Notes under the pieces: generated by a model
Databases searched by the model: none
Told to the model about the DNA's origin: nothing
What the model saw: the letters and a program-made list of their open reading frames with translations, nothing else
Program-made: the position numbers and the translations under genes
In this document: in pieces, positions 26,323 to 55,672 of the stretch
How the letters are laid out: every line of letters begins with the position of its first letter
Position numbering within the stretch: position 1 is the stretch's first letter
Assembly (NCBI GenBank): GCA_963790025.1
Contig: CAWBMP010000004.1
Location: 224,001-288,000, forward strand
DNA length: 64,000 nt
Source: Nitrospirota bacterium
GTDB taxonomy: Bacteria; Nitrospirota; Thermodesulfovibrionia; Thermodesulfovibrionales; Dissulfurispiraceae
Reading direction: 5' to 3'

Positions 26323-28032
26323 ATGACAAACTCGGGCATTATGACTGACAGGAAATTTTCAAAATTTACGTTGCGGCTAGTTATCGCTGCATCTCTTCTC
26401 ATGTTATTTCTGACAGTCGTATTTTCGATCTTTTCCACCTTCCAGAAAACTACGGATTATTTAGTACTATTTGCTCTGCCGCTCCTTGCCATAGTATCTG
26501 CCTTTGCCTTTCTCTACTTGTCAATTGTAAAACCGGCGAATCAGGTCGTAGAAATGGTCAATGCCTTTTCATCTGACGGAGGACCCCTGTCGGAGGGAGA
26601 GCGTGCAGCATTAAACTCTGATGTCATAAATCTGGCAGACACTTTAAGCGAAGCTGTCGTAAAACCAAAAAATTCGATAGCTACCAATCTGAACAAGTCG
26701 ATGAAAGTTGCCAACAAATCTGCTAATGCGATAAAGCGCGTTAAGGAGACGGCAAACAGTGCCAACAAGCAAAGTGAGTTAACAGATGTGATATTCAATT
26801 TGAGCAATGTTTCAAGCTCCGCCATTACTGATATGGCCAAGAATGCCCAGTCAATTTCCACCTCGACCTCGCAGAATCTTTCGACCGCAAAATCCTCTCT
26901 TGAGGAATTGATTAATGTTACGGAGGAAGTGAATATGATAGACACCAAACTATCGACATTCACCGAGACCGTTATGATGTTGAGCAAGAATTCGGACAGC
27001 ATCAGAGATATCGTATCAATGATAAAGGACATTTCTGACCAGACCAATCTGTTGGCGCTGAATGCGGCCATTGAGGCCGCCCGCGCCGGTGAACAGGGCA
27101 GGGGATTTGCGGTTGTGGCTGATGAAGTCAGGAAACTCGCGGAGAGGGTCAATTCGGCAACTGGAGATATATCAGGCAATATAGATGAAATGAGAGACCA
27201 GGTGTCAAGTACGCTTTCTGAAATAAAGGAAATCAACGAATTCACTTCACATCTGAAAAATGTAGTAGGCAAGACGTCGGATAATTTCAAGGGAATGCTC
27301 TCAGACTTTGAGAATAACAGCCATCAAATTAACGGAATAGCCCAAACAATTGAAAACCTGTCACAAACCAATGAAGATATTCATGAGAAAGTCTCTGATA
27401 TACGCACACTGAGCATCCAGACGAGCCGGCAAATGCAGGAAACGGAAGCTTACACTTCGGATCTGTTCGACATTGCCGAGGAGATGCAGGAGGACATGTC
27501 AACATTTATGGTCGGCACAGGTCTTGTACTTGAGGTCATCAGGAAGACAGCAGGATATAAGGATATCTTTGAGGGAAAACTCAGGGAGTATCATCACAAG
27601 GGCATAAATGTATTTGATAAAAATTACAAGGAAATACCCGGCAGTAACCCGAAGCGTTACAAAACTGCATACGATGAGCTATTTGAAAAGGAGTTGCAAC
27701 CTGTTTACGATAAAGCACTGCTTGATATCCAGGGGGCGATTTATGTGCTTTGCGTTGACGAAGGCGGGTATGCACCCAGTCATAACAGTAAGTTCTCAAA
27801 ACCACCTACGGGAAAGTATGAGATAGACCTTTTAAACTGTCGCGACAAAAGGATTTTCAATGACAAGGTCGGCATGGCATTGGCAAGAAATACCAGGCCG
27901 TTTCTGCTCCAGACATATATGCGGGATACCGGAGAAACAATCAATGATTTTTCAATGCCTATCTTTGTGGAGGGTAAGCATTGGGGCGCTCTCAGAATAG
28001 GCGTGCCGGCATCAGTGTTGGGGACGGAATAA
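26323..28032 (+). CDS. Methyl-accepting chemotaxis protein with extra C-terminal domain
   Basis: Two closely spaced TM, hairpin [36 protein letters not shown], and a ~170-aa C-terminal domain ([10 protein letters not shown]...GKHWG). Confidence 0.93.
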
Positions 28033-28076
28033 TTAAAGGGCTTCTGATATAACGGATATGCTTTCATGGAGATCCT

Positions 28077-28937
28077 ATGGAAAAAATGATATTGAGCTAT
28101 GAAAATTTTTTCAGCATACTCGATACCATTCTTTCCACTCTGAATATTGATGAATTGCTGACGATCGTTGTCAGTAAAATACAGTCGATCGTCGGCGCCG
28201 ACCGGTGCACGCTGTATCTGTTTAGCGCTGAGACCAATGAATTATATTCCAAAGTCCTGCAGGCGGATAACCTTGTCGAGATACGGGTCCCCATCACGAA
28301 AACCAGTCTTGCAGGTTTTACCGCTGCAACCGGCAGGCTCCTAAATATAAAAGACGCCTATGACGATACCGAACTCGCGGGGATCGACCCGGAATTATCA
28401 TTCGACAGGACATGGGACCGGAAAAGCGGCTATTGGACAAAGAGCGTGCTTGTCGTTCCCATTCCCATGAAAGGAAGCGAGGAGTCGGGTGTTTTCGAGG
28501 CAATTAACAAAGCCGGCGGGTTTACTGACGACGATGTTGATACCGTGAAGCAGCTTGCCTATATACTCAGCATTGCCGTCAACAATGCGCTTCTCTATCA
28601 GATCGCGGAAGATGAGGCGCGGCTCAGGGAATATATAATCGATGACATTGAAGAAGGCATCTGCATCCTCGACACAAAAAAACGGATTATTTCAGCGAGC
28701 AGGTTCATGGAAGTAATGAGCGGCATGCGCTATACTGCTGCTGAGATGCGGGGCGAGGACATCTTCGATTTGTTCCCGAGCCTCGCCGGCACGGAACTGG
28801 AAGAAAAAATGAGCGAAGTGTTACGGGATGGTTTCAAGAAAGTAGCTCAGCTCGAGGTGCTTCAGATAAAGATTGTTCCTTATCTGAATGATAAAGGCTT
28901 AACGACGAAACTGATACTGATATTAACGAGAATGTAA
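28077..28937 (+). CDS. GAF + PAS-like domain protein without output domain
   Basis: NKxxxxFxxxD-type GAF (ADRCTLY, LNIKDAY, AINKAGGFTDDD) followed by a PAS-like segment (IIDDIEEGICILD). Confidence 0.8.
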   Translation: MEKMILSYENFFSILDTILSTLNIDELLTIVVSKIQSIVGADRCTLYLFSAETNELYSKVLQADNLVEIRVPITKTSLAGFTAATGRLLNIKDAYDDTELAGIDPELSFDRTWDRKSGYWTKSVLVVPIPMKGSEESGVFEAINKAGGFTDDDVDTVKQLAYILSIAVNNALLYQIAEDEARLREYIIDDIEEGICILDTKKRIISASRFMEVMSGMRYTAAEMRGEDIFDLFPSLAGTELEEKMSEVLRDGFKKVAQLEVLQIKIVPYLNDKGLTTKLILILTRM

Positions 28938-30718
28938 TGACGGAACCGGTCAGGACTCTGGACATTTGCGGCCCACGCGAAATAAGGAAACCCTCGAGTA
29001 AGAGCTTTGAGGAACTGCTGATCGAAAAAGGATTCGTTACAAAAGAACGACTGCAGGAATACCTCGCAAGGGCCACAAAAGAGAAGAAAAATCTTGAAAA
29101 GATCCTCGTTGAAATAGGATTGGCCGAAGAGAAGTTGGCTATTGTAAAAGCCGAATATCTCGGCTACGAGTTCATCGACATATCCCGATATCCGCTGCAG
29201 TCCGATTTGTTGAAATATATAAAACCGGCCTACGCTAGAAATTACAGAGTGCTGCCTTTGAGATACGATGACGAAACTCTTACCGTTGCCATGGTCGAAC
29301 CGAGAGATTTTATGGCAATAGATGAGGTCCTCCGCATATACAAGGATGCCCGTTTCAGGATAAAGGATGTGAAGGTGGTGATGACCACATCGACGCATCT
29401 CTTCGATCTTATTAAAAATTTTTTTGCAATCCCCAGGGAGACGGAAAAGGAAAAAGTCCACCTCGGCAGCATTATGACCCAGCTTGCCGAAAGCTACAAA
29501 CCTGCCGTCAAGGTTGCTGATGTTGCGAAAGAGGAGGCTACTGAAAACAGCGCACCCATCGTGATGCTGGCAAACAAGGTGGTCGAAGACGCCTTTTATA
29601 AGAGATCGAGCGATATTCACCTTGAGCCCAGCACAGACTATTTGCGCGTAAGATACCGCATTGACGGTTATCTCCAGGAAGTAATGCGCATTCCCAAATA
29701 TGCACAGGACGCGGTCACAACAAGATTCAAGATAATGGCCGATCTGAGGATCGATGAGCGGAGGGTGCCTCAGGATGGGAGAGTGGATTTTACAAAATAT
29801 AATCCTTCTTTTCAAATAGACCTCCGTGTTTCCACAGTGCCTTCCTTTTATGGAGAGGATGTTGTAATGAGGATACTTGACAAGTCGAGCAACATTCTGA
29901 CGCTTGACAGGCTCGGATTTAACGACCACTGCATGAAGCTTTACAAAGAAGCTATCCGGTCGCCATACGGGATAATGCTCCATGTAGGCCCCACGGGCAG
30001 CGGTAAATCAACCGCCCTCTTCGCTGCCTTAAAAACGCTCGATACTGTTGATGTAAAGATAGTGACGGCGGAAGACCCGGTAGAGAGTACACTTGGAGGA
30101 CGGATTATTCAAAGCAGTATCAACCCCGTTACCGGTTATACCTTTGCCAAGGCACTGAAGTCCTTTATGAGGCATGATCCGGATATCATGCTGATAGGAG
30201 AAATAAGAGACCTGGAAACAGCAAAGGCCACGGTTGAGGCGTCCCTCACCGGACACATGGTTTTTTCCACTCTCCATACAAACGATGCAGTGGGAACGGT
30301 GACAAGGCTCATCGAAATGGGTATGGAAACGTACCTTATCGCGGACTCCCTTATTTTAGTGTGCGCGCAAAGGCTTGTCAGAAGGATTTGCATGAAATGC
30401 AAAGAGCCGTACATTGCCACAAAGGAAGAAGAGGAGTTGTCAAAAGGCAACGTAAAGGCGGGCGTGACTCTTTACAGGGGACTGGGTTGCGACGAGTGCG
30501 ACGGCAAAGGTGAAAAAGGCCGCACTGGAATTTTTGAAGTGCTTTTGGTAAACAGGGAATTCAGAAATCTCCTCATAAAAAAGGCCGACACTGAAGAATT
30601 AAGGAGGGCAGCTCTCGAAAGTGGCATGATGACACTCAGGCAGGAGGCCATTGACAAAGCGTTAAAGGGTATCATTTCACTTGAGCAAGTCCTTGAAAAT
30701 ACTCTCCCGGACACTTGA
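28937..30718 (+). CDS. GspE/PilB family secretion/pilus ATPase (orphan)
   Basis: SDIHLEP, PQDGR, GPTGSGKS, TAEDPVE, DPDIMLIGEIRD, GHMVFSTLHTN and Zn motif CMKC..CDEC. TAATG coupling to the upstream gene. Confidence 0.94.
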   Translation: MTEPVRTLDICGPREIRKPSSKSFEELLIEKGFVTKERLQEYLARATKEKKNLEKILVEIGLAEEKLAIVKAEYLGYEFIDISRYPLQSDLLKYIKPAYARNYRVLPLRYDDETLTVAMVEPRDFMAIDEVLRIYKDARFRIKDVKVVMTTSTHLFDLIKNFFAIPRETEKEKVHLGSIMTQLAESYKPAVKVADVAKEEATENSAPIVMLANKVVEDAFYKRSSDIHLEPSTDYLRVRYRIDGYLQEVMRIPKYAQDAVTTRFKIMADLRIDERRVPQDGRVDFTKYNPSFQIDLRVSTVPSFYGEDVVMRILDKSSNILTLDRLGFNDHCMKLYKEAIRSPYGIMLHVGPTGSGKSTALFAALKTLDTVDVKIVTAEDPVESTLGGRIIQSSINPVTGYTFAKALKSFMRHDPDIMLIGEIRDLETAKATVEASLTGHMVFSTLHTNDAVGTVTRLIEMGMETYLIADSLILVCAQRLVRRICMKCKEPYIATKEEEELSKGNVKAGVTLYRGLGCDECDGKGEKGRTGIFEVLLVNREFRNLLIKKADTEELRRAALESGMMTLRQEAIDKALKGIISLEQVLENTLPDT

Positions 30719-30766: not shown

Positions 30767-32410
30767 TCAGCAGTCGACCTGCCAGGAATCAAGCTCCCCT
30801 TGGGCATATTCCAGGTAAATTTTTTCCTGCATGAACAACTCAAGTATGTCCCCGTCTATCTTACCGTCTTCCTTCATAGATCCAAGAATATTTAGGGCCT
30901 GTGAAACATGCATTGGTTTTCTGTAAGGGCGGTCACTTGCCGTTAATGCCTCGAATATGTCGGCAATAGCGATGATCCTGGAAGGTATGGGCAATCCTTC
31001 GGCCTTTAAGCCGAACGGATAGCCGGTGCCATCAAGTTTTTCATGATGTGCCGCGGCATACACCGGAACGTTTTTAAGTTTCTTGGGTAATGGCAGACTT
31101 TCCAGCATTTTGAATGTCACAAGGGCATGATTTTCAATCACTTTTCTTTCTTCGGCAGTCAGCGAGCCTTGCCTGATCGAGAGGTTTGACACTTCATCTT
31201 CAGTAAGATACGGCACATCCCGGCCATTGCAATTCCAATTATTGGAGGCGATCTTTTTGAGCCTGTCGATTTTCGCATCATCCATAAACTCGCCCGGTTG
31301 ATTGCAGTTCAGAACAAACTTCTCCTCTTCAACGAGAGAATTGCACTCCTGTTCGCATCTCCCGTCTATCTCCTCAAATTCTTTTACATGCGCTCCCGCG
31401 GCTTTGTAAACTTTGAGTTTGTCTTCAAGCGCCCTGATTCTAGCATCTCTTTTGAAGACTTCATATTTTAAGGTTATCATGTGCGCCATATCGAATATCT
31501 TCTCAAGTTTGGTGGACTTATCTGCCACATGCTCGGGCGTGACGATCTTTCCAATATCATGCAGCCATGAAGCAATGCTCAGTTCTTTAAGCTCTTCTTT
31601 ATTCATTGAGAAGTCTTTGAACGGTCCCTCGGTCTTTTTACTCATGCACACGGCAATGCTCATGGCAAGTTTCTGCACTCTCTCAATATGGCCCGCCGTA
31701 TAATGCGATTTCTCATCTATTGCAAGAGCAATAGTCCTTATAAAAGAATCGAAAAGGTTCTCCATGTCTCTATACAGTTTTACATTAGATATTGCGACAG
31801 CAGCCTGTGAAGAGAGGGATGCTATCAGATCAATATGGTCCTTTAAAAAGGGGACTGCCCTGTGCGTTGCGGGATCAATGGCGTTGATTAGCTGCAAGAC
31901 ACCGATAATCTCATCTTCCTTGTTTTTCATCGGGATTACGAGCATGGATTCCGAGCGGTAGCCCGTGACTGAATCATATTTTCGGGTACCCGAAAAATCG
32001 AAACCATCCGCCGCATAGACATCGGGGATGTTGACCGTCTTGCCGGTGATCGCCACGTAGGATGAGACATTGGAAAAATTTGGGCCATCTTCTTTTTGCA
32101 AAGGCACAGGCGGCCATGTGATCGGTCCCGCGGTACCGCCCATTCTTGTTTTCAATGTGTCGTTCTGGATTATTGTAAACTCGAGGCAGTGATTTTCTTC
32201 GTTCATAATGTAGAGCGTACCTGCATCCGCTCCTGAAAATAGCCGCGCATAGCTTATTATGGCCTCGAGAAGGTGTTCAAGATTTTTTTCAGCTGAAAGG
32301 GCGATACCGATCTCGGAAAGTTTCCTCACAAGAGATTCATTGTCCGAATACTTCACTCCCGGTCCTTCCCTGTTTGAGGTAGTGTCAATTTCTTTTTTAT
32401 GAATTCCCAT
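30767..32410 (-). CDS. GAF + HD-GYP cyclic nucleotide phosphodiesterase
   Basis: GAF (ADAGTLY, VNIPDVY, GVLQLIN), TAGHIERV, WLHDIGK, a long insertion, then HHEKLDGTGYP and ADIFEALTASDRPY. Confidence 0.92.
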   Translation of the reverse strand: MGIHKKEIDTTSNREGPGVKYSDNESLVRKLSEIGIALSAEKNLEHLLEAIISYARLFSGADAGTLYIMNEENHCLEFTIIQNDTLKTRMGGTAGPITWPPVPLQKEDGPNFSNVSSYVAITGKTVNIPDVYAADGFDFSGTRKYDSVTGYRSESMLVIPMKNKEDEIIGVLQLINAIDPATHRAVPFLKDHIDLIASLSSQAAVAISNVKLYRDMENLFDSFIRTIALAIDEKSHYTAGHIERVQKLAMSIAVCMSKKTEGPFKDFSMNKEELKELSIASWLHDIGKIVTPEHVADKSTKLEKIFDMAHMITLKYEVFKRDARIRALEDKLKVYKAAGAHVKEFEEIDGRCEQECNSLVEEEKFVLNCNQPGEFMDDAKIDRLKKIASNNWNCNGRDVPYLTEDEVSNLSIRQGSLTAEERKVIENHALVTFKMLESLPLPKKLKNVPVYAAAHHEKLDGTGYPFGLKAEGLPIPSRIIAIADIFEALTASDRPYRKPMHVSQALNILGSMKEDGKIDGDILELFMQEKIYLEYAQGELDSWQVDC

Positions 32411-32630
32411 AATCCTCCCCCGATGCGGTTATTTTACGAGGATACCGGAAAAATGTCCAGCGTCTGATGGCGAAGCATTTTGCCGGCTATGTAATATTAA
32501 AATTCTTCCCCGCTCGGCAAGAATGCCCGTCCATAAGACTGGTGTGCCTGACAATATTCTTCTCAAAATAACAGGGAATTGTGGTAAAATCCGCGCATAT
32601 AATAAGATTTTTCCCGGGGGAAGGAGTTTT

Positions 32631-34727
32631 ATGGGGATTTATAAGCGAGCGCTGCCCATTGGAATCTGCATTGCTGCAACGTTATTTTTTTCGTTGCATG
32701 CCGCCCGTCTCGTTAATGTCGATTTCATGGACCGGCTGGAAGCTTTGAGTTACGACCTCCGGCTCAATCTTACCCTGCCCCATTCACATAATTCCAAAAT
32801 CGTCATAGTCGACATAGATGAAAAAAGCCTTTCCGAAGAAGGGCGCTGGCCCTGGAGCCGCAACAAATTGGCATTGCTGGTGGCCAATTTGTTGCGCCAT
32901 AATGCGGCAGTCATCGGCTTAGACGTTGTTTTTGCGGAAAAGGATGAAAGTTCAGGGTTAAAAACATTGGAGCAGTTGGGCAAAAAAGAACTGCACGGTG
33001 ACGAGGCGTTCCAGAACAACTTGAGGAGAATCAGGGACCGGATGGACTATGATAATGTTTTTGCCCGCCTGATTAAGGGCAAGCCCGTAGTGCTTGGCTA
33101 CTATTTCACGCATTACGCGGATAAAAGCAGGGAGCGTGTCAGCGGGCAATTGCCTCCAACGGTTTTCCCTTCCGGGGCATTTGAGGGGATGAACATCCCT
33201 TTTGTGAAAATGACCGGATACGGAGCAAACCTGCCAAAACTGCAGGACAATGCGATGAGCGCCGGACATTTCAATCAATTGCCCGATGCCGATGGCGTTG
33301 TAAGGCGCATCCCGATGATTATCGAATACAACGGCTCTTATTACGAATCCCTCTCGCTGGCTGTTGTTCGCGCCCTCTTCGGCAGTCCTTCTCTAAAGCC
33401 GGGGCTCGTTTCTTCGGGTGGGGGCGGTTCCGCTTATAAGAGGATTGAATGGCTGCAAACGAGTGATCTCAGGATCCCGGTGGATGAGCGTATTACTTCT
33501 TTGATTCCATATGCCGGAGGACAGGGAAGTTTCCCGTATATATCCGCCGCGGACGTTTTGCGTGACAGCATAAAAACAGATGTCCTTGAAGGGGCCATAG
33601 TTTTGGTCGGCACCACCTCCCCGGGATTAATGGACCTGCGCTCCACTCCGGTGCAGGCCGTTTATCCTGGTGTGGAGGTGCAAGCCAACATGATCGCAGG
33701 AATCCTCGATCAAAATATCAGGAAGAAGCCTGCCTATACTATGGGAGCAGAGCTATTGGCGCTGCTGTCGACAGGCTTGTTGCTCTCTTTCTTGTTGCCC
33801 TATCTCAGTCCGTTAAAAGCGACCCTGGTCGGCTTTCTCGCGGCGGCGTGTGTAATAGCGATAAACATGTGGGCATGGAAGAACAACCTGGTGTTGCCGC
33901 TTGCGTCCTCGGTTATCAATATATCGTTTATCTTTATTCTTAATATGTCGTATGGCTTTTTTATCGAGACCGGAGCAAAGCGCAGGATCAAGGCGATGTT
34001 CTCAAGCTATGTTACCGAACGGATAGTTAACGAGCTGATCAAAAATCCTGATATGGCGAAACTGGGGGGAGAGCGAAGGGAAATAACGATTCTGTTCTCC
34101 GATGTAAAAGGGTTTACCAGTTTTTCTGAAAAGCATACGCCTGAGGAAGTCGTTTCCATACTGAATGAATACCTGGGAGCCATGACAGGCGTCGTGTTCA
34201 AATGGGAGGGCACGCTCGACAAGTTTATCGGAGACGCTATCCTCGTATTCTGGAGCGCGCCGATGCACCAGGAAAACCATGCTGAACTGGCGGTGAAATG
34301 CGCTCTCGACATGGTCGGGACGCTGGGACAGCTCAGGCAAAAATGGCTTTCCGAAGGGAAAGCGTCCCTTGATTGCGGAATTGGCATCAATACAGGAGAG
34401 GTCATTGTCGGCAATATAGGAGCCGAAGGGAAGAAAATGGATTACACTATTATCGGCGACCACGTAAACCTGAGTTCACGTGTCGAATCCCTCACCAGGA
34501 AATATAACGTGGATATCCTGATCACAGAATTCACCCTTCAGAAAATCAGGGAAAAAATAGAAAGCAAGTCCCTCGCCCATGTATCGGTAAAGGGCATTGA
34601 AAAGGTTGTAGTAAAAGGGAAAGAAAAACCTGTGGAGATTTACGAGCTGACCTCGCTCGAAGGTGGGAAAGACTCGGTCATTACCAGTCCCGTCGAAAAA
34701 ACGGTCGTTGTGCTGAAAGATAAATAG
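32631..34727 (+). CDS. CHASE2-domain class III adenylate cyclase
   Basis: TM-CHASE2 (IVDIDEKS, GRWPWSR, D.DGVVRR, PGVEV)-3TM-cyclase (FSDVKGFT, DKFIGDA, DYTIIGDHVNLSSR). The Lys/Thr specificity pair points to ATP. AAGGAG RBS. Confidence 0.94.
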   Translation: MGIYKRALPIGICIAATLFFSLHAARLVNVDFMDRLEALSYDLRLNLTLPHSHNSKIVIVDIDEKSLSEEGRWPWSRNKLALLVANLLRHNAAVIGLDVVFAEKDESSGLKTLEQLGKKELHGDEAFQNNLRRIRDRMDYDNVFARLIKGKPVVLGYYFTHYADKSRERVSGQLPPTVFPSGAFEGMNIPFVKMTGYGANLPKLQDNAMSAGHFNQLPDADGVVRRIPMIIEYNGSYYESLSLAVVRALFGSPSLKPGLVSSGGGGSAYKRIEWLQTSDLRIPVDERITSLIPYAGGQGSFPYISAADVLRDSIKTDVLEGAIVLVGTTSPGLMDLRSTPVQAVYPGVEVQANMIAGILDQNIRKKPAYTMGAELLALLSTGLLLSFLLPYLSPLKATLVGFLAAACVIAINMWAWKNNLVLPLASSVINISFIFILNMSYGFFIETGAKRRIKAMFSSYVTERIVNELIKNPDMAKLGGERREITILFSDVKGFTSFSEKHTPEEVVSILNEYLGAMTGVVFKWEGTLDKFIGDAILVFWSAPMHQENHAELAVKCALDMVGTLGQLRQKWLSEGKASLDCGIGINTGEVIVGNIGAEGKKMDYTIIGDHVNLSSRVESLTRKYNVDILITEFTLQKIREKIESKSLAHVSVKGIEKVVVKGKEKPVEIYELTSLEGGKDSVITSPVEKTVVVLKDK

Positions 34728-37535: not shown

Positions 37536-37705
37536 ATTGATTTCCTGTTTATAATGAAAAAACTTCGACCCTGACAGCCCAAATCTTGCCATAACGACCC
37601 AGTGGTTTGCAACATTATAACGCATTACCCGATTTAAATAAAAAGGCCGGACGGGGTCCGGCTTGTCTATGGAGCAAGTTGGTAAATTTGACAATGCGAT
37701 AATTT

Positions 37706-37724: not shown

Positions 37725-37806
37725 ATAGGAAAGTTATTAGGTGTATTAAATGGTTGTATTTTTTATTTTAATTTGCTATTTTATATTGTTCTTAAAGGGG
37801 CAAAAA

Positions 37807-39654: not shown

Positions 39655-39658
39655 ATAA

Positions 39659-42196: not shown

Positions 42197-42239
42197 TGTA
42201 ATACTGCTTACACACTTTTTTTTACGGCCGGCATATAAT
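42197..42239 (+). promoter_or_regulatory. Class II Crp-family-activated promoter of tpsA1
   Basis: TGTAA-TACTGC-TTACA (42197-42212) and TATAAT (42234-42239); GTA-N8-TAC-N22-TAN3T geometry. Confidence 0.7.
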
Positions 42240-42359
42240 AATGGAAGCTAGGCCGCAGGACTTGACCTTAGTGTGGCTAAACGATGCCTTTTAATACAGA
42301 CATGGTATATAATTAGCGACCAGGGAAACAATGTAGCATCAAGTCGAGGGGGAGCAGTT

Positions 42360-48300: not shown

Positions 48301-48806
48301 CAGAGGCCAACACAACTGTCGTGAACTCGACCCAAACAGCCACGACGACAACCACTGTTACGCCTTCATTGCCTACAACAAGCAATCAGAACATTACAGC
48401 GTCTTTAGTTGATACATCAGCGCCTTCAACAACAGCTACATTATCTTCAGCAGACACAGCGAGTGCCTTTAATACGACAGTCTCTTCGGGGTCTTCTTTG
48501 AGTGGTCCACAGGGATACGGATATTCTTCGCCAACTGATCCGACAGTTCTGGCGACGTTCTCCGGGAAGGACGGTGCAGCAACGGCCTCGACAGGCTCTT
48601 TTGGGTTCGCCTACACAGGGCCATCAGCCGCAGAGATAGCTATATTCTCAGGAACAAGAGGTGGCACACAGGGATCTTCTTCGACAACGTCGTCGTCCGG
48701 AAGCGGAGCTGCGGGAAGTTCGGGAGGACGCTCAGGGAAACATGATACAGGAAGCACAGCAAGTGACAAGGGCAATCAGAAACCCAAGAAAACTTTTTGT
48801 AATTAG
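42360..48806 (+). CDS. TpsA filamentous-haemagglutinin-family exoprotein with GLUG repeats, MBG domain and Thr-rich tail (2148 aa)
   Basis: Signal peptide, TPS domain (IINWLSFSIG, LNRITG, NPNGI, GGFIETS, WLIDP), many VGGLVGYN repeats, TKTYDG..GYDITYVQGTLTI; ends KTFCN. Confidence 0.93.
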   Translation: MSGPLQRYAVIFVLLVFSTNVAFALPSGPQIANGQVSFNTLGNNLTVTNSPNSIINWLSFSIGGNEAVRFIQQNSASAVLNRITGQSPSQIFGLLQSNGRVFLVNPNGILFGQGSQINVAGLVASTLNINDQDFLAGKYNFTAGAVAGSIQHQGTITTPSGGSVYLIAPNIENSGIITSPQGTVLLAAGHSVQLVDSSNPDIAVVVSSPTDQAVNLGQIIAQSGTVGIYGALISQKGLVSADSATVGANGKIIFKASKSVTLDEGSVTSAQGGGTISVLADMQNGTVNVAGTLDASAPNGGNGGFIETSAASVKIADTAYVTTLAPYGKTGTWLIDPPDFTIDANPTVGDISGAALGQELDLTSIIIHSADGLKNTSGNGDIFVNDSISWSHPTTLSLLADRNININQAIQGSNSGSGVVLTASTGSISGTGVITAGSLTANAATGIGNSQALNTKVSTLSVSNSTSGDINISNNASGGILYVSGTNSASGGDFKVAENSGYIYAYSITAGRDITLSNNTGWIETAGTITSGRDITLTDTGNSIYICGNTVSAIRNINLTADYIEICSNVTASGDLSAVTLNGGLGFYNGGSIDLTGSAPTLSINSKPYTVINSHNYSTLPNIINVNPASYYALGQNMDASTWSSGISSFSGVFEGLGHTISNLNINKTGDSNYIGLFGNNSGTIQNVGLTNVNINVTGNSNYVGGLVGYNSGTVSNAFVTGQSTGSAITVTGNNNFVGGLVGYNSTAGTINNNSYNSGCVTVLGDNNKVGGLAGSNMGSIDSSGNTGGMSVTGTSSDGNFVGGLVGYNDSGGGICWSYNSGGINVNGQGNTNTVGGLVGANQSGNTITGSYNSGPVAAYGNNSIIGGLVGQNSGNITSSYNTATVTEHGDTGKTGGLAGYNNAGTIDSSYNNGDVAVTSNLSDGNAVGGLVGYSDGTIRNASYNSGAVSVTGMDSINYNYVGGLVGQNAGSIDSTYNNGIVTTSGDYNKVGGLVGSNGSNVPGNAAITNSYNTGTVNDSNGSNNLVGGLVGYNCFGNSISYSYSSGLVSGTSASGTQKGGMVGQNDGTITSSYWDMYTSGLTSGVGLDNNSGATTLTGLSSQSGSAFVQNNYAGFDFTSGSPVWYMVPGSTRPFLTSEYSTTISNAHQLQLIGMNATTLSASYTLAKNIDMNELKNSSGMWNSSYNSSTQTWSGTGFVPVGSNANTAFTGSFYGNGYFIDGLYINTTANNVGLFGYSSGYIYNVPLKDVNINGGSGSYIGALVGHNTGSIYYSYSTGTVSTNGSCSGGGTVGGLVGYNDSSGTITNSYSSTNVSTINSGGSDSVGGLVGSNYGSIDYYSYSTGTVTTNGSNGRDSVGGLVGYNDSRGTITNSYSSANVSANSSLGGDSVGGLVGSNYGSIGYYSYSTGTVNTNGSNGRDSVGGLVGYNDSRGTITNSYSSANVSANSSLGGDSVGGLVGSNYGSGSNGISNSYSTGTVTTNGSLDSNSGNANNTNHNNNGNDNVGGLVGYNFGSINNSYSSAVVSTNYSSCLDSVGGLVGFNDIIGSITTSYSSGSVTTTNSSGGESVGGLVGSNYGSGSNGIINSYSTSIVSINGSSDSGYRNVNNSNNNNNGNDNIGGLAGYNNGSINNSYSIGSVSTNGSNGGDSIGGLVGFNDISGSITTSFSTANVSTINSGGGDSVGGLVGSNYGGGSNGISNSYSTGTVTDNSSGSYGVNPNTPLANSGNDYVGGLAGYNNGNINNSYSIGSVSSNGGDSIGGLVGSNSGNIANSYWDATINQGLDNGIGTPLTTNQMMSYNTFQNVWSISQSGTTTPSGNTPWVIYDGLTYPLLKSFLTPLTITASSITKTYDGTPYSGGNGVTYSVPNAYNYLQGTLGYTGTAQGAIDPNPTYTIIPTGLYSNNQQGYDITYVQGTLTITGGTTTTATTTTTTQGSTTTATDTTTTNTTTSPATTALSTQGSTTTATTTTPAQTAATTASTEANTTVVNSTQTATTTTTVTPSLPTTSNQNITASLVDTSAPSTTATLSSADTASAFNTTVSSGSSLSGPQGYGYSSPTDPTVLATFSGKDGAATASTGSFGFAYTGPSAAEIAIFSGTRGGTQGSSSTTSSSGSGAAGSSGGRSGKHDTGSTASDKGNQKPKKTFCN
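46182..46770 (+). repeat. Intragenic tandem repeats of 195-198 bp (double-GLUG units)
   Basis: Units start TACAGCACAGGCACGGTAA at 46182, 46380 and 46575; units 2 and 3 are nearly identical. Confidence 0.85.
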
Positions 48807-48871
48807 CCTCCCGCCAGGAAAACAAGCATATAAGGCTGAATAAATCTTTCTTTACAATGGGTGCCGTTTAA

Positions 48872-48914
48872 TGTAATCCTGCTTACACACCCTTTTTTAC
48901 GGCTGGCATAAAAT
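48872..48914 (+). promoter_or_regulatory. Class II Crp-family-activated promoter of tpsA2
   Basis: TGTAA-TCCTGC-TTACA (48872-48887) and TAAAAT (48909-48914), same spacing as copy 1. Confidence 0.7.
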
Positions 48915-49017
48915 AATGTCAGATAGGCCGCAGGACATGACCTGGGCAAGGGGAAGTTGGCATGGTATATAATAGGAACCAGGGAAACAATATAGCATCA
49001 AGTCGAGGGGGGGAGTT

Positions 49018-51939
49018 ATGTCAGGACCGCGTCTAAGATATGCGATAATTTTTGTCCTTCTCGTATTCAGTACAAACGTCGCCTTTGCCCTTCCCTCCGG
49101 GCCGCAGGTTGCAAACGGGCAGGTCAGCTTCAAAACTCTGGGCAATAATCTTACTGTCACCAACAGCCCCAATTCGATAATCAACTGGCTGAGCTTTTCG
49201 ATTGGCGGCAATGAGGCGGTGCGCTTTATACAGCAAAACAGCGCAAGCGCTGTCCTGAACCGCATCACCGGGCAGTCTCCTTCGCAGATATTCGGTCTTC
49301 TGCAGTCAAATGGCAGGGTCTTTCTCATCAACCCAAACGGCATACTGTTTGGTAAGGGTTCACAGGTCAACGTAGCCGGACTGGTGGCATCCACACTGAA
49401 CATCAACGATCAGGATTTCCTGGCAGGGAAGTATAACTTTACTGCCGGCGCTGTTGCTGGGAGCATCCAGCACCAGGGGACGATAACGACGCCTTCCGGC
49501 GGCTCGGTATACCTGATAGCGCCAAATATAGAAAACAGCGGAATCATCACATCTCCGCAGGGCACAGTGCTGCTGGCGGCGGGACACAGCGTGCAACTGG
49601 TGGATTCATCCAATCCTGACATAGCAGTTGTAGTGAGTTCTCCAACCGATCAGGCTGTGAACCTTGGACAGATAATAGCGCAGAGCGGGACAGTGGGTAT
49701 ATACGGGGCTCTCATATCGCAGAAAGGGCTGGTGAGCGCAGACAGCGCAACAGTGGGGGCCAACGGCAAGATAATATTCAAGGCAACGGAAAGTGTAACG
49801 CTCGATGAAGGCAGTGTGACCAGCGCACAAGGCGGCGGGACCATCAGTGTTCTGGCAGATATGCAGAATGGGACAGTGAATGTAGCGGGCACGCTTGATG
49901 CTTCAGCGCCGAATGGCGGCAATGGGGGTTTCATAGAGACCTCGGCGGCAAATGTGAAGATAGCGGATACAGCCTATGTTACCACACTTGCGCCATACGG
50001 GAAGGCGGGAACGTGGCTGATCGATCCGACTGATTTTACCATCTCTTCGGGTAACGCATCGCAAACAACCAGTGGTATCGGTGCGAACACGTTGATGAAG
50101 GATCTCTCACTCGGCAATATGGCCATCCAAACCGATAATTCGACCGGCAGCAACCCCGGCGATATTTATGTTAATGGCCCTGTGAATTGGAGCAGCGCTT
50201 ACAGCCTGACTTTAACCGCCTATCATGATATATACATCAACTCTCACATTAATGCGGTTGGCGGTGCAGGACTTATACTCTCTTCGGGCACGAGCGGCAA
50301 CGGTGCCATAAGCGGCACGGGTAATATAACTGCCGGCACGCTTACAGCGACCGCAGCTACCGGCATCAGCCTTACAGGCAGTAACGTAGTTCCGATTGTA
50401 AGTCTCACAAACAATACCAGCGGCGATATCATTTACAATAGCGCCGTAGGCAGCGGGCAGACTCTTTACATATCAGGCAGGAACTCTGCGTCAAACGGGG
50501 CGTTCACCGTTACCGAGAACAGCGGCAATCTCAATGTATACAACAATGGTACCATTAATGGCATCACCAGTAATGGCGGTCTGGTGACCCTCACTGCCAA
50601 TACGGGCTCCATAAACGGCACAGGTGTTATAACTGCAAACAGCCTTACAGCGACTGCGGCTACCGGCATTAACCTGACCGGCAATAACATAGTGCCTGCT
50701 GTTAGCCTCACAAACAATACCAGCGGCGATATCAACTACGACAGCAGCGTAGGCAGCGGGCAGACTCTTAACGTTAGCGGCACTAACTATGCTTCCGGCG
50801 GTCTCTTCAATGTCACTGAGAAATCCGGCACTCTCAATGTGATCGACTCCTGTATCATTACTAATTCCGGAGCGGTAACCCTCACTACTTCTCCCGGGGC
50901 GGGCAACATCACCCTTACAAGCTATATAGACACGACAAACGGAAATACGGCCAGCGGGGCTGCCGTTTATCTTAATTCAGCAGGCAGCATAACAGGCGGC
51001 GTCTCCGGTACCCCCGGGATAATAACTGCAAACAGTCTCACAGCTACCGCGGCAAACGGCATTACCCTCGGCTCAGCAAACTACTATAATGACGTGCAGA
51101 ACGTAAGCCTCACAAACAATACCAGCGGCGATATCATTTACAATAGCGCCGTAGGCAGCGGGCAGACTCTTAACGTTAGCGGCACTAACTATGCTTCCGG
51201 CGGTCTCTTCAATGCCACAGAAAAATCCGGCACTCTCAATGTGGCAAACGCCGGTATTAAGACCACGGGCGGGCCGGTAACTCTCACCACAAATGCCGGT
51301 CCAATTACCGTTACAGGCCCTATAGATACGACCAATAGTAATACTGCTCCCCCTAACATCGTCACTCTTAATTCAGCGGGCGGCACAAGCGGCTCCGGGA
51401 AAATAACGGCCAAACAAAACACAACTACTGCGACCGATACAACGACGACTGATACCGCAACAACTACACCTGCTACTCAAACTGCTGCAACAGCGGCGAC
51501 TGATACAACGACGACTGATACCGCGACCACCGACCCATCAACCACTGCTGCACTTAATGCGTCGACAGAAGCCACTGCAACTGTTGTCAGCACGACCCAA
51601 TCAGTCACCACAACAATAGCCGTTACGCCTGCATTGCCTACAACCAGCAATCAAAGCGTTACGGCATCATTGGTGGATTCATCGCCGGCGACATCTCCTG
51701 AAACTGCAGGGCAGGATCCCCTGTCATTTGCTTTCGCAACAACAGTTAGTCCGGACTTGGGCACGGGCGCCTTACCCATCGGCACAGGCTCTCAAAGCCT
51801 CGCCCAGGGTCCGTCCTCCTCAGGCAATGGAGGTTCAGGGAGTTCAAAGGATTTTGACAGCGGTAAAGGAAAACATGATACAGGAGGCACAACAAGTGAC
51901 AAAGGCAATCATAAATCCAACAAAACTTTTTGTAATTAG
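49018..51939 (+). CDS. Second TpsA exoprotein (973 aa), beta-helical repeats and Thr-rich tail
   Basis: TPS domain nearly identical to tpsA1, three LTATAA.GI.L..N...VSLTNNTSGDI repeats; ends KTFCN. Confidence 0.92.
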   Translation: MSGPRLRYAIIFVLLVFSTNVAFALPSGPQVANGQVSFKTLGNNLTVTNSPNSIINWLSFSIGGNEAVRFIQQNSASAVLNRITGQSPSQIFGLLQSNGRVFLINPNGILFGKGSQVNVAGLVASTLNINDQDFLAGKYNFTAGAVAGSIQHQGTITTPSGGSVYLIAPNIENSGIITSPQGTVLLAAGHSVQLVDSSNPDIAVVVSSPTDQAVNLGQIIAQSGTVGIYGALISQKGLVSADSATVGANGKIIFKATESVTLDEGSVTSAQGGGTISVLADMQNGTVNVAGTLDASAPNGGNGGFIETSAANVKIADTAYVTTLAPYGKAGTWLIDPTDFTISSGNASQTTSGIGANTLMKDLSLGNMAIQTDNSTGSNPGDIYVNGPVNWSSAYSLTLTAYHDIYINSHINAVGGAGLILSSGTSGNGAISGTGNITAGTLTATAATGISLTGSNVVPIVSLTNNTSGDIIYNSAVGSGQTLYISGRNSASNGAFTVTENSGNLNVYNNGTINGITSNGGLVTLTANTGSINGTGVITANSLTATAATGINLTGNNIVPAVSLTNNTSGDINYDSSVGSGQTLNVSGTNYASGGLFNVTEKSGTLNVIDSCIITNSGAVTLTTSPGAGNITLTSYIDTTNGNTASGAAVYLNSAGSITGGVSGTPGIITANSLTATAANGITLGSANYYNDVQNVSLTNNTSGDIIYNSAVGSGQTLNVSGTNYASGGLFNATEKSGTLNVANAGIKTTGGPVTLTTNAGPITVTGPIDTTNSNTAPPNIVTLNSAGGTSGSGKITAKQNTTTATDTTTTDTATTTPATQTAATAATDTTTTDTATTDPSTTAALNASTEATATVVSTTQSVTTTIAVTPALPTTSNQSVTASLVDSSPATSPETAGQDPLSFAFATTVSPDLGTGALPIGTGSQSLAQGPSSSGNGGSGSSKDFDSGKGKHDTGGTTSDKGNHKSNKTFCN

Positions 51940-52618
51940 CCTCCTGGCCCTGTTGTTTATACTGGTTGCGTATGCAGCGTCATTTGCCGGAGAAGCTGCA
52001 GGGACGGTCACGCACATTAGCGGTCCCCTGTTTGCAAAGAAGGCCGATGGTACGACCAGGGTCCTGTCCAAAGACTCTACAGTGGAATCAGGGGACGTTA
52101 TTGTGTCGGAGAAAAGCACGTATGCCCGTATAAAGTTCACTGACGGCAGCGAGATGACTCTGCGTCCGGACACCCAGATCAAAATAACAAACTACAGCTA
52201 TGATCAGGCCAAGCCCCAGGAAGATGCTGCTGTTTACGATTTGGCGAAAGGAGGACTTCGAGCTATTACAGGGGCCGTAGGGAAACGCGGCAATAAGGAC
52301 AGCTATAAAATGAATACGCCCACGGCAACAGTTGGGATCAGAGGGACAGTTTATGAGTGCCGGCTGTGCGAAGGCAACTGCGGGCAGGTCCCCAACGGTT
52401 TATATCTGTTTGTCGCAACAGGAGCAATCGCAGCTACGAACAGCGGCGGCTCGCAGCATATCAATGCAGGCCAGTATGCGTATGTTGCATCCCCGAGCGC
52501 CAAGCCTGTAATCCTGCCGGGGAATCCCGGTATAAATTTCACCTTGCCCCCGTCCATGACGTCAGCCTCCGGCCAATCCAAGGGCGGAAACAAGTCAGGC
52601 GACTGTACGGTTCGTTGA
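51896..52618 (+). CDS. Periplasmic FecR-domain protein
   Basis: Signal peptide (..AASFA), GDVI, ARIKFTDGSEMTLRPDT, KGGLRAITG and TPTATVGIRGT. GTG start 8 nt after AGGAGG, inside tpsA2 (alternative ATG at 51875). Confidence 0.88.
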   Translation: MTKAIINPTKLFVISLLALLFILVAYAASFAGEAAGTVTHISGPLFAKKADGTTRVLSKDSTVESGDVIVSEKSTYARIKFTDGSEMTLRPDTQIKITNYSYDQAKPQEDAAVYDLAKGGLRAITGAVGKRGNKDSYKMNTPTATVGIRGTVYECRLCEGNCGQVPNGLYLFVATGAIAATNSGGSQHINAGQYAYVASPSAKPVILPGNPGINFTLPPSMTSASGQSKGGNKSGDCTVR

Positions 52619-52629
52619 GCATATCTCCC

Positions 52630-54099: not shown

Positions 54100-54155
54100 C
54101 TAAGTTGCAGGTTCTCCCCACAGTTATAGCTTAAACATGGTAAAATGACTATAAC

Positions 54156-54659
54156 ATGATCGCAAAGATTTCCATGACTGTGCTTTTTTTTCTTGCGGCT
54201 TTGTTGCCCGCACTGATCACGGTTGAAAACGTTTCGGCTGATGAGACGATTCCGTTTACTGCGCGGGCCGGTATCAAATTTGTCACCGTGCTGATAAATG
54301 GTGTGCCTATTGAACTCATCTTTGATACCGGGGCTGATAACATTGTTCTCAATAAGGACACATTACAGCGCCTCGGGATCACAACTTATAGCACTACACG
54401 GAAGCTCCAGGTGCAAACTGCCGGATGTGTCATAGACGGCTATGTGCTCACACTTGGTTCCATCAAGGTTGGAAATATCGAAAGATACAATTATGATATT
54501 GCCTACATCCCCTCATCCACTAAAAACCTTCTGGGGTCATCTTTCTTCACCAACTACAATTATTACATCGACGAGGATTACAAAGTGATAAGGCTGATTC
54601 CAAAGGGCAGGTTTCTTTTCGAAAACCCGGCAGGAAGTCTGGGACTAGCTCCTAACTAG
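54156..54659 (+). CDS. Exported retropepsin-like (clan AA) aspartic protease
   Basis: Signal peptide, LIFDTGAD catalytic motif, TAG flap and NLLGSSFF. Confidence 0.85.
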   Translation: MIAKISMTVLFFLAALLPALITVENVSADETIPFTARAGIKFVTVLINGVPIELIFDTGADNIVLNKDTLQRLGITTYSTTRKLQVQTAGCVIDGYVLTLGSIKVGNIERYNYDIAYIPSSTKNLLGSSFFTNYNYYIDEDYKVIRLIPKGRFLFENPAGSLGLAPN

Positions 54660-55672
54660 CTTTCCGGATTGCTCATGACAACAACCCTGTTCCTTCCCGC
54701 CCCCTTGGCCTGGTATAAGGCTTCATCCGCCTTGCTTATAAGTACCCCCCTATTCTGCATTTCCTTATCGTAGTTAGAAACCCCGAGACTCACGGTAATC
54801 TCCCCTTTTGCCTCAACATCTTTTCGTATCCTCTCGGCCACCTCCAGGGCACTTTGCAGTTCTGTCTGAGGAAGCAATATAAGGAATTCCTCACCCCCGT
54901 ATCTTATCAAAAGGTCTGTCTCCCTTATGTCCTGGGAGATTATTGCTGCGAGGCTGACAAGTAAATTGTCCCCTGCAATGTGGCCGTACGTGTCATTATA
55001 TTTTTTGAAATAATCTATATCGAGCATGATGGCGGACAGATGCCTGTGATATCTCCTTGCCTCGGCGAATATCTTTTTAAACATGATTTCCATATAGCGC
55101 CTGTTGCCGCAGCCTGTAAGAGAGTCATGAAGTGAAAGCGCCTTTGCCTCTTCATAGAGTCTTGCATTTTCCATGCTTATTGTTTCAAGCTCACTCTTTT
55201 GCTTTATAATCTGCTCTTCAGCCTTCTTGCGCTCCGTGATGTCTGCTATGAGGCCGTCATAAGCGACAAGCTGCTTATTTTCATACCGCGGCACCGTTGT
55301 ATTTCTTACCCATCGAACTGAACCGTCTTTATGAGTGATTCGGTGTTCGAGAGGCTGAACAGTTTTCCCTGAAAGCACCATGTTCGCCTGAGAGATTACT
55401 GCATCCCTGTCTTTTTCATAAACCATGTCTATCCATAGGATAGGGTCAGCCTCGTATTCCTCTGAAGTATAACCTGTAACTGAAAAACAACCAGGACCAT
55501 GTATTGTTTTAACCGGGCGGCCATTCTCCACTTGAACTATATAAATATAGTCCGTAACTGCACCAACAAGCTTTCTGTAACGTTCCTCCTGAGTTTCAAG
55601 TTCGGCGATTTGTTTCCGCAACTCGATTAATTCACTCAAGAGTTGCTCTTTGGATTTTTCTTCATCTTTCAT
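54656..55672 (-). CDS. PAS-GGDEF diguanylate cyclase
   Basis: PAS/PAC, HDSLTG, DIDYFKKYND.YGH, RETD I-site and RYGGEEF. Confidence 0.94.
   Translation of the reverse strand: MKDEEKSKEQLLSELIELRKQIAELETQEERYRKLVGAVTDYIYIVQVENGRPVKTIHGPGCFSVTGYTSEEYEADPILWIDMVYEKDRDAVISQANMVLSGKTVQPLEHRITHKDGSVRWVRNTTVPRYENKQLVAYDGLIADITERKKAEEQIIKQKSELETISMENARLYEEAKALSLHDSLTGCGNRRYMEIMFKKIFAEARRYHRHLSAIMLDIDYFKKYNDTYGHIAGDNLLVSLAAIISQDIRETDLLIRYGGEEFLILLPQTELQSALEVAERIRKDVEAKGEITVSLGVSNYDKEMQNRGVLISKADEALYQAKGAGRNRVVVMSNPES

Follow-up and report, generated by a model that had tools for sequence, protein, structure and literature searches.

The 64-kb stretch of DNA analysed here (positions 224,001 to 288,000 of contig CAWBMP010000004.1 from a Nitrospirota bacterium, assembly GCA_963790025.1; the whole stretch is called the window below) carries between positions 26323 and 55672 the genes of a two-partner secretion (TPS) transporter, TpsB, two secreted TPS adhesins, TpsA1 and TpsA2, a FecR-like protein, a CHASE2 receptor cyclase and several further proteins of cyclic-nucleotide and cyclic di-GMP (c-di-GMP) signalling. 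The question raised by this locus is what a FecR-like protein does beside a secreted adhesin, and whether the adhesin is connected through it to the cyclase. A first-pass annotation had proposed that contact of the adhesin is signalled through FecR to the CHASE2 domain, and that cyclic AMP (cAMP) and a Crp-type regulator feed back on adhesin expression. The reading that we prefer, and to which we give about an even chance, is that the FecR-like protein is a periplasmic anchor of TpsA, probably attached by a disulfide, and likely also a co-sensor of the CHASE2 cyclase.

The open reading frames (ORFs) of the window were listed with their translations across 1-64 kb and scanned against Pfam and NCBIfam, and the first-pass gene list was borne out, with domain matches for every gene (Table 1). 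Also as annotated, the scanned ORFs contain no domain of an extracytoplasmic function (ECF) sigma factor (Sigma70_r2/r4) and none of a TonB-dependent receptor. For the surrounding loci, the FecR family was used as the guide. It is a tight family of proteins of about 240 residues; 551 relatives were collected into an alignment (A1), and a scan of one genome per species with the A1 profile gave 342 FecR relatives among 598 matched stretches. The best 80 of these 342 yielded 78 loci (numbered with an L below) with up to 10 kb on either side, in all of which ORFs were called (1.2 Mb in total) and searched with the proteins of the window. The loci come from Nitrospirota, Syntrophales/Smithellaceae, Geobacteraceae/Desulfuromonadales, many Betaproteobacteria (including Undibacterium, Noviherbaspirillum, Herbaspirillum, Sulfuricella and Azonexus), one metagenome-assembled genome (MAG) of Thiotrichales and one of Spirochaetota. 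The closest relatives of the FecR-like protein and of the metallo-beta-lactamase (MBL) fold hydrolase of the window are found in Nitrospirota/Thermodesulfovibrionales and Syntrophales MAGs.

A tpsA gene lies directly upstream of fecR in 50 of the 78 loci, in 48 of the 59 with at least 3 kb of upstream sequence and in 40 of the 44 with at least 9 kb. TpsB, with ortholog E-values of 1e-120 to 1e-209, is seen in 45 of the 78 and in 39 of the same 44. Most of the loci seemingly without TpsA have a giant upstream ORF (L002, L039, L041, L044 and L077), of which the N-terminus is off the contig or the repeats are too divergent for phmmer. Variant orders are found in L051 and L067, where tpsB and not tpsA is directly upstream of fecR, and in L033, where tpsB comes after fecR. 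In the window the crp-like gene alone stands between tpsB and tpsA1; in related loci tpsB and tpsA are directly adjacent. The invariant core of the module is tpsB-tpsA-fecR. Since other phyla have this gene set too, chance does not explain the clustering. The predicted co-occurrence was thus confirmed: TpsB, TpsA and FecR recur together, and subsets of the loci add the CHASE2 cyclase, a GAF-HD-GYP protein, an MBL hydrolase, a protein that binds cyclic nucleotide monophosphates (cNMP) and a PilB-like ATPase with GAF and MshEN domains. As side observations, more than one fecR copy is present in L047, L071 and L026, and L047 has two complete TpsA-FecR pairs in tandem.

TpsA1 is a secreted beta-helical filament with a TPS domain in which NPNGILF is present, GLUG repeats, a Thr/Ser-rich tail and the C-terminus KTFCN. 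TpsA2 is its paralogue, nearly identical over the first ~400 residues and with the same KTFCN end. At the DNA level this corresponds to a tandem duplication of 1.24 kb (42140-43378 and 48815-50036, 91.5% identity); the copied stretch takes in the leader, the TPS domain and, ahead of them, the final ~57 nt of the crp-like gene. At their 3' ends (48734-48811 and 51867-51944) the two tpsA genes are 91% identical as well, and therefore tpsA1 bears a remnant of the fecR start without a fecR gene of its own. A role of TpsA as a contact-dependent toxin was considered and rejected: Pfam and NCBIfam gave no toxin domain, and both tails are of low complexity.

The overlap of fecR with tpsA2 noticed in the first pass is real. 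The most likely start of fecR is GTG 51896, 8 nt behind AGGAGG, and tpsA2 ends at 51939, so that 44 nt are shared; the MBL gene in turn most likely starts at 52630, just past fecR. In 46 of 57 pairs, 70-79 nt separate the tpsA stop codon from the conserved SGP motif of mature FecR, and in the window the figure is 79 nt. This is too short for a signal peptide, and therefore the coding of the signal peptide starts inside tpsA. The tpsA-fecR overlap itself is conserved across phyla.

The ends of the two proteins are conserved as well. Among 68 FecR genes having a large upstream ORF, 64 are preceded by a protein with a Cys within its last six residues, and 59 of these 64 Cys-tailed proteins end exactly in [YF]-C-N. 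This terminal Cys is the sole cysteine in 14 of 57 TpsA ORFs, over hundreds to thousands of residues and as far as the sequence extends. On the other side, a Cys is found among the last five residues in all 80 FecR ORFs, and 72 of the 80 end in C-x-[VILMA]-[RK] (C-T-V-R in the window), whereas only 36 of the 80 have an internal CxxxC pair. TpsA and FecR of the window have one conserved terminal Cys each, and not an intramolecular pair. Deviations from the two motifs tend to coincide: both ends deviate in three pairs, only one end in two plus two pairs, and neither in 57 (Fisher p=0.002, uncorrected for relatedness). In L070 and L077, where a crp-like gene stands between tpsA and fecR, both protein ends deviate. 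Judged by these termini, the FecR-like protein and TpsA are a matched pair, and the pattern suggests that the two are probably joined by a C-terminal disulfide.

The FecR-like protein has an N-terminal cleavable signal peptide followed by a periplasmic part, without a cytoplasmic anti-sigma domain or a membrane anchor. Its AF2 model (pLDDT 81) consists of an all-beta core (residues 34-207) and a disordered tail (220-240) that bears the terminal Cys. In Foldseek searches of the PDB, the model matched the C-terminal cell-surface signalling domain (CCSSD) of PupR (6ovk_R, E 1.1e-5) and the anti-sigma factor BDI_1681 (4m0h, E about 1.5e-4). The first of its sandwiches superposes on 5ix9, a 'cell surface anchoring domain' of the LapA/MpIBP type (TM 0.81 by target, root-mean-square deviation 0.9 Å, 65 columns, E 1.4e-3). 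The A1 profile reaches 5ix9 by sequence at E 0.013, and the NCBIfam model retention_LapA (NF033682) matches FecR with an E-value of 1.9e-10 and 41 bits, below its curated cut-off of 50. The C-terminal cysteines of the two partners, together with the resemblance to a retention-module fold, point to the FecR-like protein being first of all a periplasmic anchor of the TpsA C-terminus.

A mechanism can be proposed on this basis. TpsB would export the beta-helical TpsA filament, and the last TpsA residues ([YF]-C-N-COOH, here KTFCN) would remain in the periplasm. Synthesis of the FecR-like protein would keep pace with that of TpsA, since the fecR start codon is located within the 3' end of tpsA; the protein would be exported by Sec and would have a beta-sandwich too large for passage through TpsB. 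A disulfide from the Cys of the flexible FecR C-terminus (C-x-V-R-COOH) to the C-terminal Cys of TpsA would then make FecR a stopper in trans, by which the filament would be kept tethered through the TpsB pore. The CHASE2 receptor cyclase would produce cAMP, the cytoplasmic MBL hydrolase would probably degrade it and cNMP-binding proteins would read it, and the GAF-HD-GYP protein and the GAF/MshEN PilB-like ATPase may pass the signal on to c-di-GMP. By analogy with published pairs of FecR-domain proteins and CHASE2 sensors, the periplasmic CHASE2 domain may read the state of FecR (free, loaded or pulled), and the state of the adhesin would thereby set the cAMP level.

The second half of this proposal depends on the cyclase. 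Hydropathy gives for its ORF a first transmembrane segment, a periplasmic CHASE2 domain (about residues 67-405), three further transmembrane segments and a class III cyclase domain, which carries FSD, KFIGD and DYT motifs; these we take to fit an adenylate cyclase. Elsewhere the cyclase is found near the trio in three arrangements. In nine loci it immediately precedes tpsB on the same strand, namely in L001 (Nitrospirota), in L023 (Smithellaceae), in L030, L036, L040, L042, L045 and L057 (all of the Geobacter group) and in L067. It closes a block after fecR in six others (L035, L055, L059, L062, L063 and L065), where the order is tpsB, tpsA, fecR, cNMP-binding protein, PilB-like ATPase (on the opposite strand), MBL hydrolase, GAF-HD-GYP protein and CHASE2 cyclase. 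In L028 it is 1.5 kb downstream of fecR. The cyclases adjacent to tpsB are the closest relatives of the window enzyme (E down to 1e-229). The CHASE2 domain is a rare one, matched by 14,763 of 1.84 billion representative proteins, and by a rough estimate about 0.01 would be expected by chance in the 1.2 Mb of loci. The link of the cyclase to the trio is frequent and not obligatory, at least as adjacency.

FecR-domain genes were also found beside CHASE2 cyclases without TPS genes, in all three of the alphaproteobacterial plasmid loci inspected. On an Ensifer plasmid, genes for a TPR protein and FecR are divergent from a CHASE2 cyclase gene that is followed by an MBL hydrolase gene; on a Ruegeria plasmid, fecR is directly upstream of the cyclase gene; and in a Sinorhizobium meliloti record labelled pSymB, a FecR-domain gene adjoins a CHASE2 cyclase homologue. 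This adjacency suggests that FecR and CHASE2 domains work as partners independently of TPS. A complex prediction with FecR residues 33-240 (A1) and CHASE2 residues 31-369 (A3) scored 0.01 against a mark of 0.32, a figure obtained without controls that speaks neither for nor against binding.

A candidate cytoplasmic hydrolase for the product of the cyclase is the MBL-fold protein, which has no signal peptide, carries HCHDDH at residue 62 and has homologues with PF23023. Its sequence matches in the PDB are 7t28 (1.5e-5) and 7u2r (7.9e-4), and the top three Foldseek matches are all Apyc1 structures (7u2r, 7u2s and 7t28, E about 1e-8); it is twice the length of Apyc1 and has an extra C-terminal beta domain. 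The protein is therefore a candidate cyclic-nucleotide phosphodiesterase of the Apyc1 type, as far as its modelled fold indicates. An Apyc1-like MBL gene comes after fecR in the window, L030 and L041 and is present in L054, and an MBL protein like class II cAMP phosphodiesterases is found in seven betaproteobacterial loci and in L033 (PDEase_II 3.4e-14 in L035, 13775-14626). The two MBL families are unrelated (no phmmer similarity at E up to 10), and that one slot is taken by two different MBL enzymes speaks for a need of the module for cyclic-nucleotide hydrolysis. The idea that the MBL protein is a periplasmic sulfatase, which came from the sulfotransferase genes after fecR in some loci (see below), was rejected, since there is no signal peptide and the nearest folds are Apyc1 and RNase Z.

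The genes that would connect cAMP with c-di-GMP recur in some of the loci. Orthologues of the GAF-HD-GYP protein (about 1e-134), which is probably a c-di-GMP phosphodiesterase to judge from its motifs, adjoin the CHASE2 cyclase gene in eight loci. The stop and start codons of the GAF-PAS and PilB-like genes overlap in the window, and a fused protein with GAF, MshEN and T2SSE domains is encoded in eight loci (for example L035, 11229-13601, ~790 residues), in betaproteobacterial clusters such as those of the Noviherbaspirillum type. Of the two MshEN-like domains reported in the first pass, one is a Pfam MshEN match (PilB residues 75-165) and the other is a weak, sub-threshold match to a c-di-GMP motif only (residues 26-65, NF053729, E=8.6e-6). 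No PilC/GspF platform or pilin genes occur near the PilB-like gene in the window or in the Noviherbaspirillum-type loci. By domain family, cAMP is a candidate ligand for the GAF domains in the HD-GYP and PilB-like proteins, and c-di-GMP for MshEN.

Two proteins with a cNMP-binding fold are indeed encoded in the window, as annotated, but only one of them, the 984-residue protein, has the canonical cassette; that of the Crp-like protein is degenerate. The 984-residue protein carries an intact GEPRSAS cassette and is the only canonical cNMP receptor of the cluster. It has a C-terminal NapH-like polyferredoxin membrane domain and no DNA-binding domain, and it is probably not a sigma54 activator, because its AAA+ domain has neither the Walker A Gly-Lys nor a GAFTGA loop. 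The architecture is odd, and the gene is convergent with that of the CHASE2 cyclase, 13 nt apart. The fusion of an acetyl-CoA hydrolase/transferase with a GNAT domain has an orthologue directly after fecR in L015 (10722-12587, 3e-241) and a partial one in L023 (19959-20669); its GNAT part resembles the cAMP-regulated mycobacterial acetyltransferase Pat (9.7e-15), and the messenger system may have another output in this protein.

The relay as originally proposed, in which contact of the adhesin acts through FecR on CHASE2 as in FecA-FecR, with cAMP-Crp feedback on tpsA and no covalent tether, would account for the conserved gene set and for the match of the FecR model to the cell-surface signalling domain of PupR. 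It also has a precedent in S. meliloti, where, in the available parts of the papers, the outer-membrane protein NsrA is required for activation of the CHASE2 cyclases CyaK, CyaD1 and CyaD2, and the Crp-family protein Clr reads the cAMP (PMC7529298, PMC13001267). A further point for it is the palindrome ahead of each tpsA gene, the centre of which is 41.5 nt upstream of the +1 implied by TATAAT 42234-42239, the geometry of a class II promoter; with one mismatch at most, the window contains four matches where 1.36 are expected, and 5 of 100 shuffles reach four. However, both palindromes lie inside the tandem duplication and are therefore one evolutionary instance, and the pattern TGT[GA]A-N6-T[CT]ACA is not conserved upstream of tpsA in related loci (2 matches in 24.6 kb; background rate 0.05 per kb). 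The E. coli-type site TGTGA-N6-TCACA is not enriched in the window either (27 matches with up to two mismatches, 25.6 expected), and a sigma70 scan listed no promoter at the tpsA leaders, as expected without a -35 element. Thus, of the annotated Crp-type promoters, the exact palindromes ahead of both tpsA genes stand, as a single duplicated case that related loci lack. The presumed reader deviates as well. The best solved relative of the Crp-like protein is S. meliloti Clr (7pza), but alignments place Ala-Cys at the positions of R82/S83 of CAP, where both CAP and Clr have the Arg-Ser phosphate contact, and the PRSA cassette is intact in all eight cluster-linked cNMP proteins elsewhere (eight loci) and in the 984-residue protein of the window. 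Because Arg-Ser is absent and the palindrome is unconserved, Crp feedback is the weakest link of the relay, and control of adhesin expression by cAMP and Crp finds little support. The relay also leaves the terminal cysteines and the fixed gene overlap unexplained, and no cyclase is nearby in most of the trio loci. We consider it quite improbable.

The same findings on the Crp-like protein and the palindrome, which leave a transcriptional feedback loop unsupported, also weigh against the anchor and co-sensor reading that we prefer, and so do several others. One TpsA, in L020, clearly lacks the terminal Cys; single conserved cysteines could serve another modification; and the retention module is matched in part only (65 columns, and an NCBIfam score below the cut-off). 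The cyclase was found within 10 kb in 16 of 78 loci (13 of the 44 with at least 9 kb upstream, and 10 of the 37 with full flanks), and in the window itself 5 kb separate it from tpsB and 17 kb from fecR. In L003, L007, L017, L025 and L049, the five loci Pfam-scanned for this, the trio lies amid unrelated housekeeping genes, and therefore FecR works without an adjacent cyclase in most lineages. Finally, no fusion of a FecR domain to CHASE2, TPS or ShlB was found in the best 120 of 183 longer FecR relatives, which have PF04773 alone. The proposed partnership of FecR and CHASE2 is supported in that the gene pairing recurs, in the loci, on plasmids and in the literature, but the constant partner of FecR is the TPS pair. 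Much of this would also be expected if FecR were an accessory of TpsA secretion or retention only, the cyclase and nucleotide genes regulating the adhesin in response to another periplasmic cue, with no contact between FecR and CHASE2. Conservation of the trio is much stronger than that of the cyclase link (40 against 13 of 44 loci), the longer relatives show no fusions, and control of adhesin retention by c-di-GMP is established for CdrA and LapA, as far as the available parts of the sources go (PMC4694147; 10.1101/198937). Such an accessory role does not account for the FecR genes beside CHASE2 cyclases or kinases in lineages without TPS genes (the plasmids above; PMC5192318 and PMC9239204, in their available parts), nor for the nine loci of three lineages in which the cyclase gene immediately precedes tpsB on the same strand, and we find it rather doubtful. 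An accumulation of signalling genes by chance beside an ordinary TPS adhesin locus is hardly credible. The rest of the window consists of housekeeping and other sensory genes, with histidine kinases and sigma54 regulators at 16-22 kb and 56-59 kb, and the chemotaxis, GGDEF and protease genes of the cluster are rarely or variably linked elsewhere; but the same components stand together in other phyla in different gene orders, and this conserved synteny contradicts chance.

A stronger form of the anchor and co-sensor reading can also be stated, which we put forward tentatively and think unlikely to hold in full: a class of type Vb adhesins, spread over several phyla, would be covalently tethered C-terminus to C-terminus to a periplasmic protein of the FecR/retention-module type that is itself the ligand of the CHASE2 cyclase, and pull, loss or cleavage of the filament would be turned into cAMP and then, through GAF-HD-GYP and the MshEN ATPase, into c-di-GMP. 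If true, this would be a mechanosensory or surface-sensing device made from a secretion system.

Table 1. Features of the 29-kb region and the evidence for each (positions in the window)
Feature	Position	Strand	Evidence and remarks
Methyl-accepting chemotaxis protein (MCP) signalling protein	26323-28032	+	MCPsignal 4.7e-38; N-terminal membrane hairpin; peripheral membership
GAF-PAS protein	28077-28937	+	Pfam
PilB/GspE-type ATPase with MshEN	28937-30718	+	Pfam; TIGR02538 2.1e-163
GAF-HD-GYP protein	30767-32410	-	HD_5 4.8e-38; GAF 7.1e-13; HD284, HHE455, GYP463
CHASE2 + class III cyclase	32523-34727; likely start 32631	+	CHASE2 3.2e-60; Guanylate_cyc 9.2e-27
984-aa cNMP-binding/sigma54-type AAA+/NapH-like membrane protein	34740-37694	-	cNMP_binding 3e-17; Sigma54_activat 5.3e-19; Fer4_5
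Acetyl-CoA hydrolase/transferase-GNAT fusion	37750-39654	+	Pfam
TpsB, with signal peptide	39659-41248	+	POTRA_2 6.7e-21; ShlB 5.5e-28 (ShlB/FhaC barrel)
Crp/Fnr-family regulator	41258-42196	+	cNMP_binding 5.6e-22; HTH_Crp_2 3.4e-13; NikA-like 2.1e-7
Palindrome TGTAATACTGCTTACA	42197-42212		exact TGTAA-N6-TTACA; copy 48872-48887 ahead of tpsA2
TpsA1, 2148 aa	42360-48806	+	TPS 1.6e-33; Glug 7.5e-44; TIGR01901 adhes_NPXG
TpsA2, 973 aa	49018-51939	+	TPS 3.8e-33
FecR-like protein, 240 aa	51896-52618 (ORF 51728-52618)	+	Pfam FecR PF04773 7.3e-10
MBL-fold hydrolase, 489 aa	52630-54099 (ORF from 52357; likely start 52630)	+	HCHDDH; Apyc1-type folds
Retropepsin-like aspartic protease, 167 aa, signal peptide	54156-54659	+	Asp_protease_2 2.9e-17; TIGR02281
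PAS-GGDEF diguanylate cyclase	54656-55672	-	GGDEF 2.4e-43; GGEEF259; RxxD site RETD250; peripheral membership

The outer genes of the region are peripheral to the module, being rarely or variably linked to it elsewhere: MCP genes occur in two of the 78 loci (after fecR in L023, and another in L013), GGDEF proteins in 17 of the 78 with varied architectures and positions, and a relative of the retropepsin-like aspartic protease in one of the 78 (L051, 4 kb from fecR), so that its membership is uncertain. The protease, of clan AA, could be a release protease for the tethered filament; its gene and the convergent GGDEF gene share 4 nt at their ends. The Crp-like protein has an N-terminal extension of ~75 residues that resembles the ribbon-helix-helix proteins NikA/MobA (41258-41500), which the cluster-linked cNMP proteins of other loci (177-236 residues) do not have. 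Outside the region, a GG-N10-GC element, CGGCATAATACTTGC, is found on the minus strand at 25919-25933, in the gap upstream of a major facilitator superfamily transporter gene (23989-25836), and could be a candidate sigma54 promoter served by an NtrC-type regulator of the window. Over the whole window the sigma54 promoter pattern gave 59 matches where 58 are expected, with none convincingly positioned in the cluster.

Some of the other loci carry different genes after fecR. Sulfotransferase genes follow it in L002 (7133-9205, Nitrospirae), L039 (8236-9177), L041 (10712-11713) and L054 (13051-17730), the last three being Geobacteraceae, Desulfuromonadaceae and delta-proteobacterial MAGs, and L054 adds genes for adenosine phosphosulfate (APS) kinase/CysN and phosphoadenosine phosphosulfate (PAPS) reductase; these genes hint at sulfation of the filament or of its tail in such loci. 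In L007 (10981-15750) a TPR protein and a 1039-residue protein with an N-terminal FecR domain are encoded directly after the trio, a pair that recalls the published Campylobacterota cluster and possibly NsrA; the 1039-residue protein gave no tblastn match in the plasmid collection.

The significance of the module lies in two points. The signals sensed by CHASE2 domains are described as largely unknown in the available part of PMC5192318; FecR-domain partners recur beside CHASE2, and the module offers an input that can be tested, namely the state of a surface filament held by FecR. At the same time it suggests a new answer to the question of how TPS adhesins are retained, by a stopper in trans and not by a built-in hook. 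Taken together, the module suggests an undescribed way to anchor an adhesin and to sense its state, and since it is present in harmless cultured isolates (Undibacterium, Noviherbaspirillum), the disulfide, retention and the cAMP response are open to ordinary genetics.

Comparison with known systems suggests which parts of this may be new; several of the sources were available in part only, and the statements about them refer to those parts. In the literature searched, from which most subscription journals are absent, no link of TPS to CHASE2 or to a FecR/CHASE2 system was found, and no TpsA/TpsB pair is described as part of such a system, which agrees with what the first-pass annotation had supposed. 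Papers that combine FecR with two-partner secretion concern, in the parts available, only classical FecIR systems or a TPS regulon; FecR is absent among the listed matches on the LapA retention module; and the Omp85/TpsB survey PMC4104836 makes no mention of FecR, CHASE2 or cyclases. The pairing of FecR with CHASE2 and the NsrA cascade are already published, as the available parts of the papers show, and the link to TPS would be the new part.

The likeness to FecA-FecR-FecI is in the periplasmic FecR fold (PF04773; PupR 6ovk; BDI_1681 4m0h), but here there is no ECF sigma factor, TonB-dependent transducer, cytoplasmic anti-sigma domain or membrane anchor. The NsrA-CyaK-Clr cascade combines an outer-membrane beta-barrel partner with CHASE2 cyclases and a Crp-family reader. 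However, NsrA is one large protein, with the barrel put at residues 600-1200, for which no TpsA filament is described in the available text, and Clr has the Arg-Ser cAMP contact that the Crp-like protein of the window lacks. In the Burkholderia 'BiofilmReg' operon (response regulator, LysM-FecR protein, CHASE2 histidine kinase and DUF4136 protein), to which a similar pair of P. aeruginosa PAO1 corresponds and which is linked to biofilms (PMC5192318), a secreted FecR-domain protein is also encoded directly beside a CHASE2 sensor. There, however, the output is a histidine kinase, the FecR protein has LysM, and the accessible portion reports no TPS genes and no terminal-Cys motifs. A Campylobacterota cluster of CHASE2 cyclase, phosphodiesterase, FecR outer-membrane protein and TPR protein has been published (PMC9239204), which L007 resembles with its TPR protein and 1039-residue FecR-domain protein after the trio. 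In that cluster, as described in the part of the paper at hand, FecR belongs to an outer-membrane protein, and the text names no TpsA/TpsB pair.

As a secretion system, the locus has the features of type Vb: a TpsB with POTRA domain and ShlB barrel, a TpsA with a TPS domain and NPNG, and tpsB and tpsA together. For the retention of adhesins two precedents exist. The LapA retention module plugs the outer-membrane pore from the periplasm, and 5ix9 served as its modelling template (preprint 10.1101/198937, in part); the first FecR sandwich superposes on 5ix9 and matches NF033682, below the cut-off. But the module of LapA is within the adhesin, which is secreted by a type 1 system, whereas here it would be a separate gene product in a type 5b system, and no LapG, LapD or type 1 secretion system was found among the window ORFs with Pfam and NCBIfam. 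The second precedent is CdrA/CdrB with LapG/LapD of P. aeruginosa. There an intramolecular 'cysteine hook' retains the two-partner secreted CdrA in CdrB (10.1101/198937), so that in this system, too, second messengers control a TPS adhesin which a cysteine-based C-terminal structure in the periplasm keeps threaded in the TpsB pore (10.1101/198937; PMC4694147; both in their available parts). It differs from the module described here in that the two partners of the latter have only one terminal Cys each, the bulky part would come from a separate FecR-like protein, and the messengers would be centred on cAMP.

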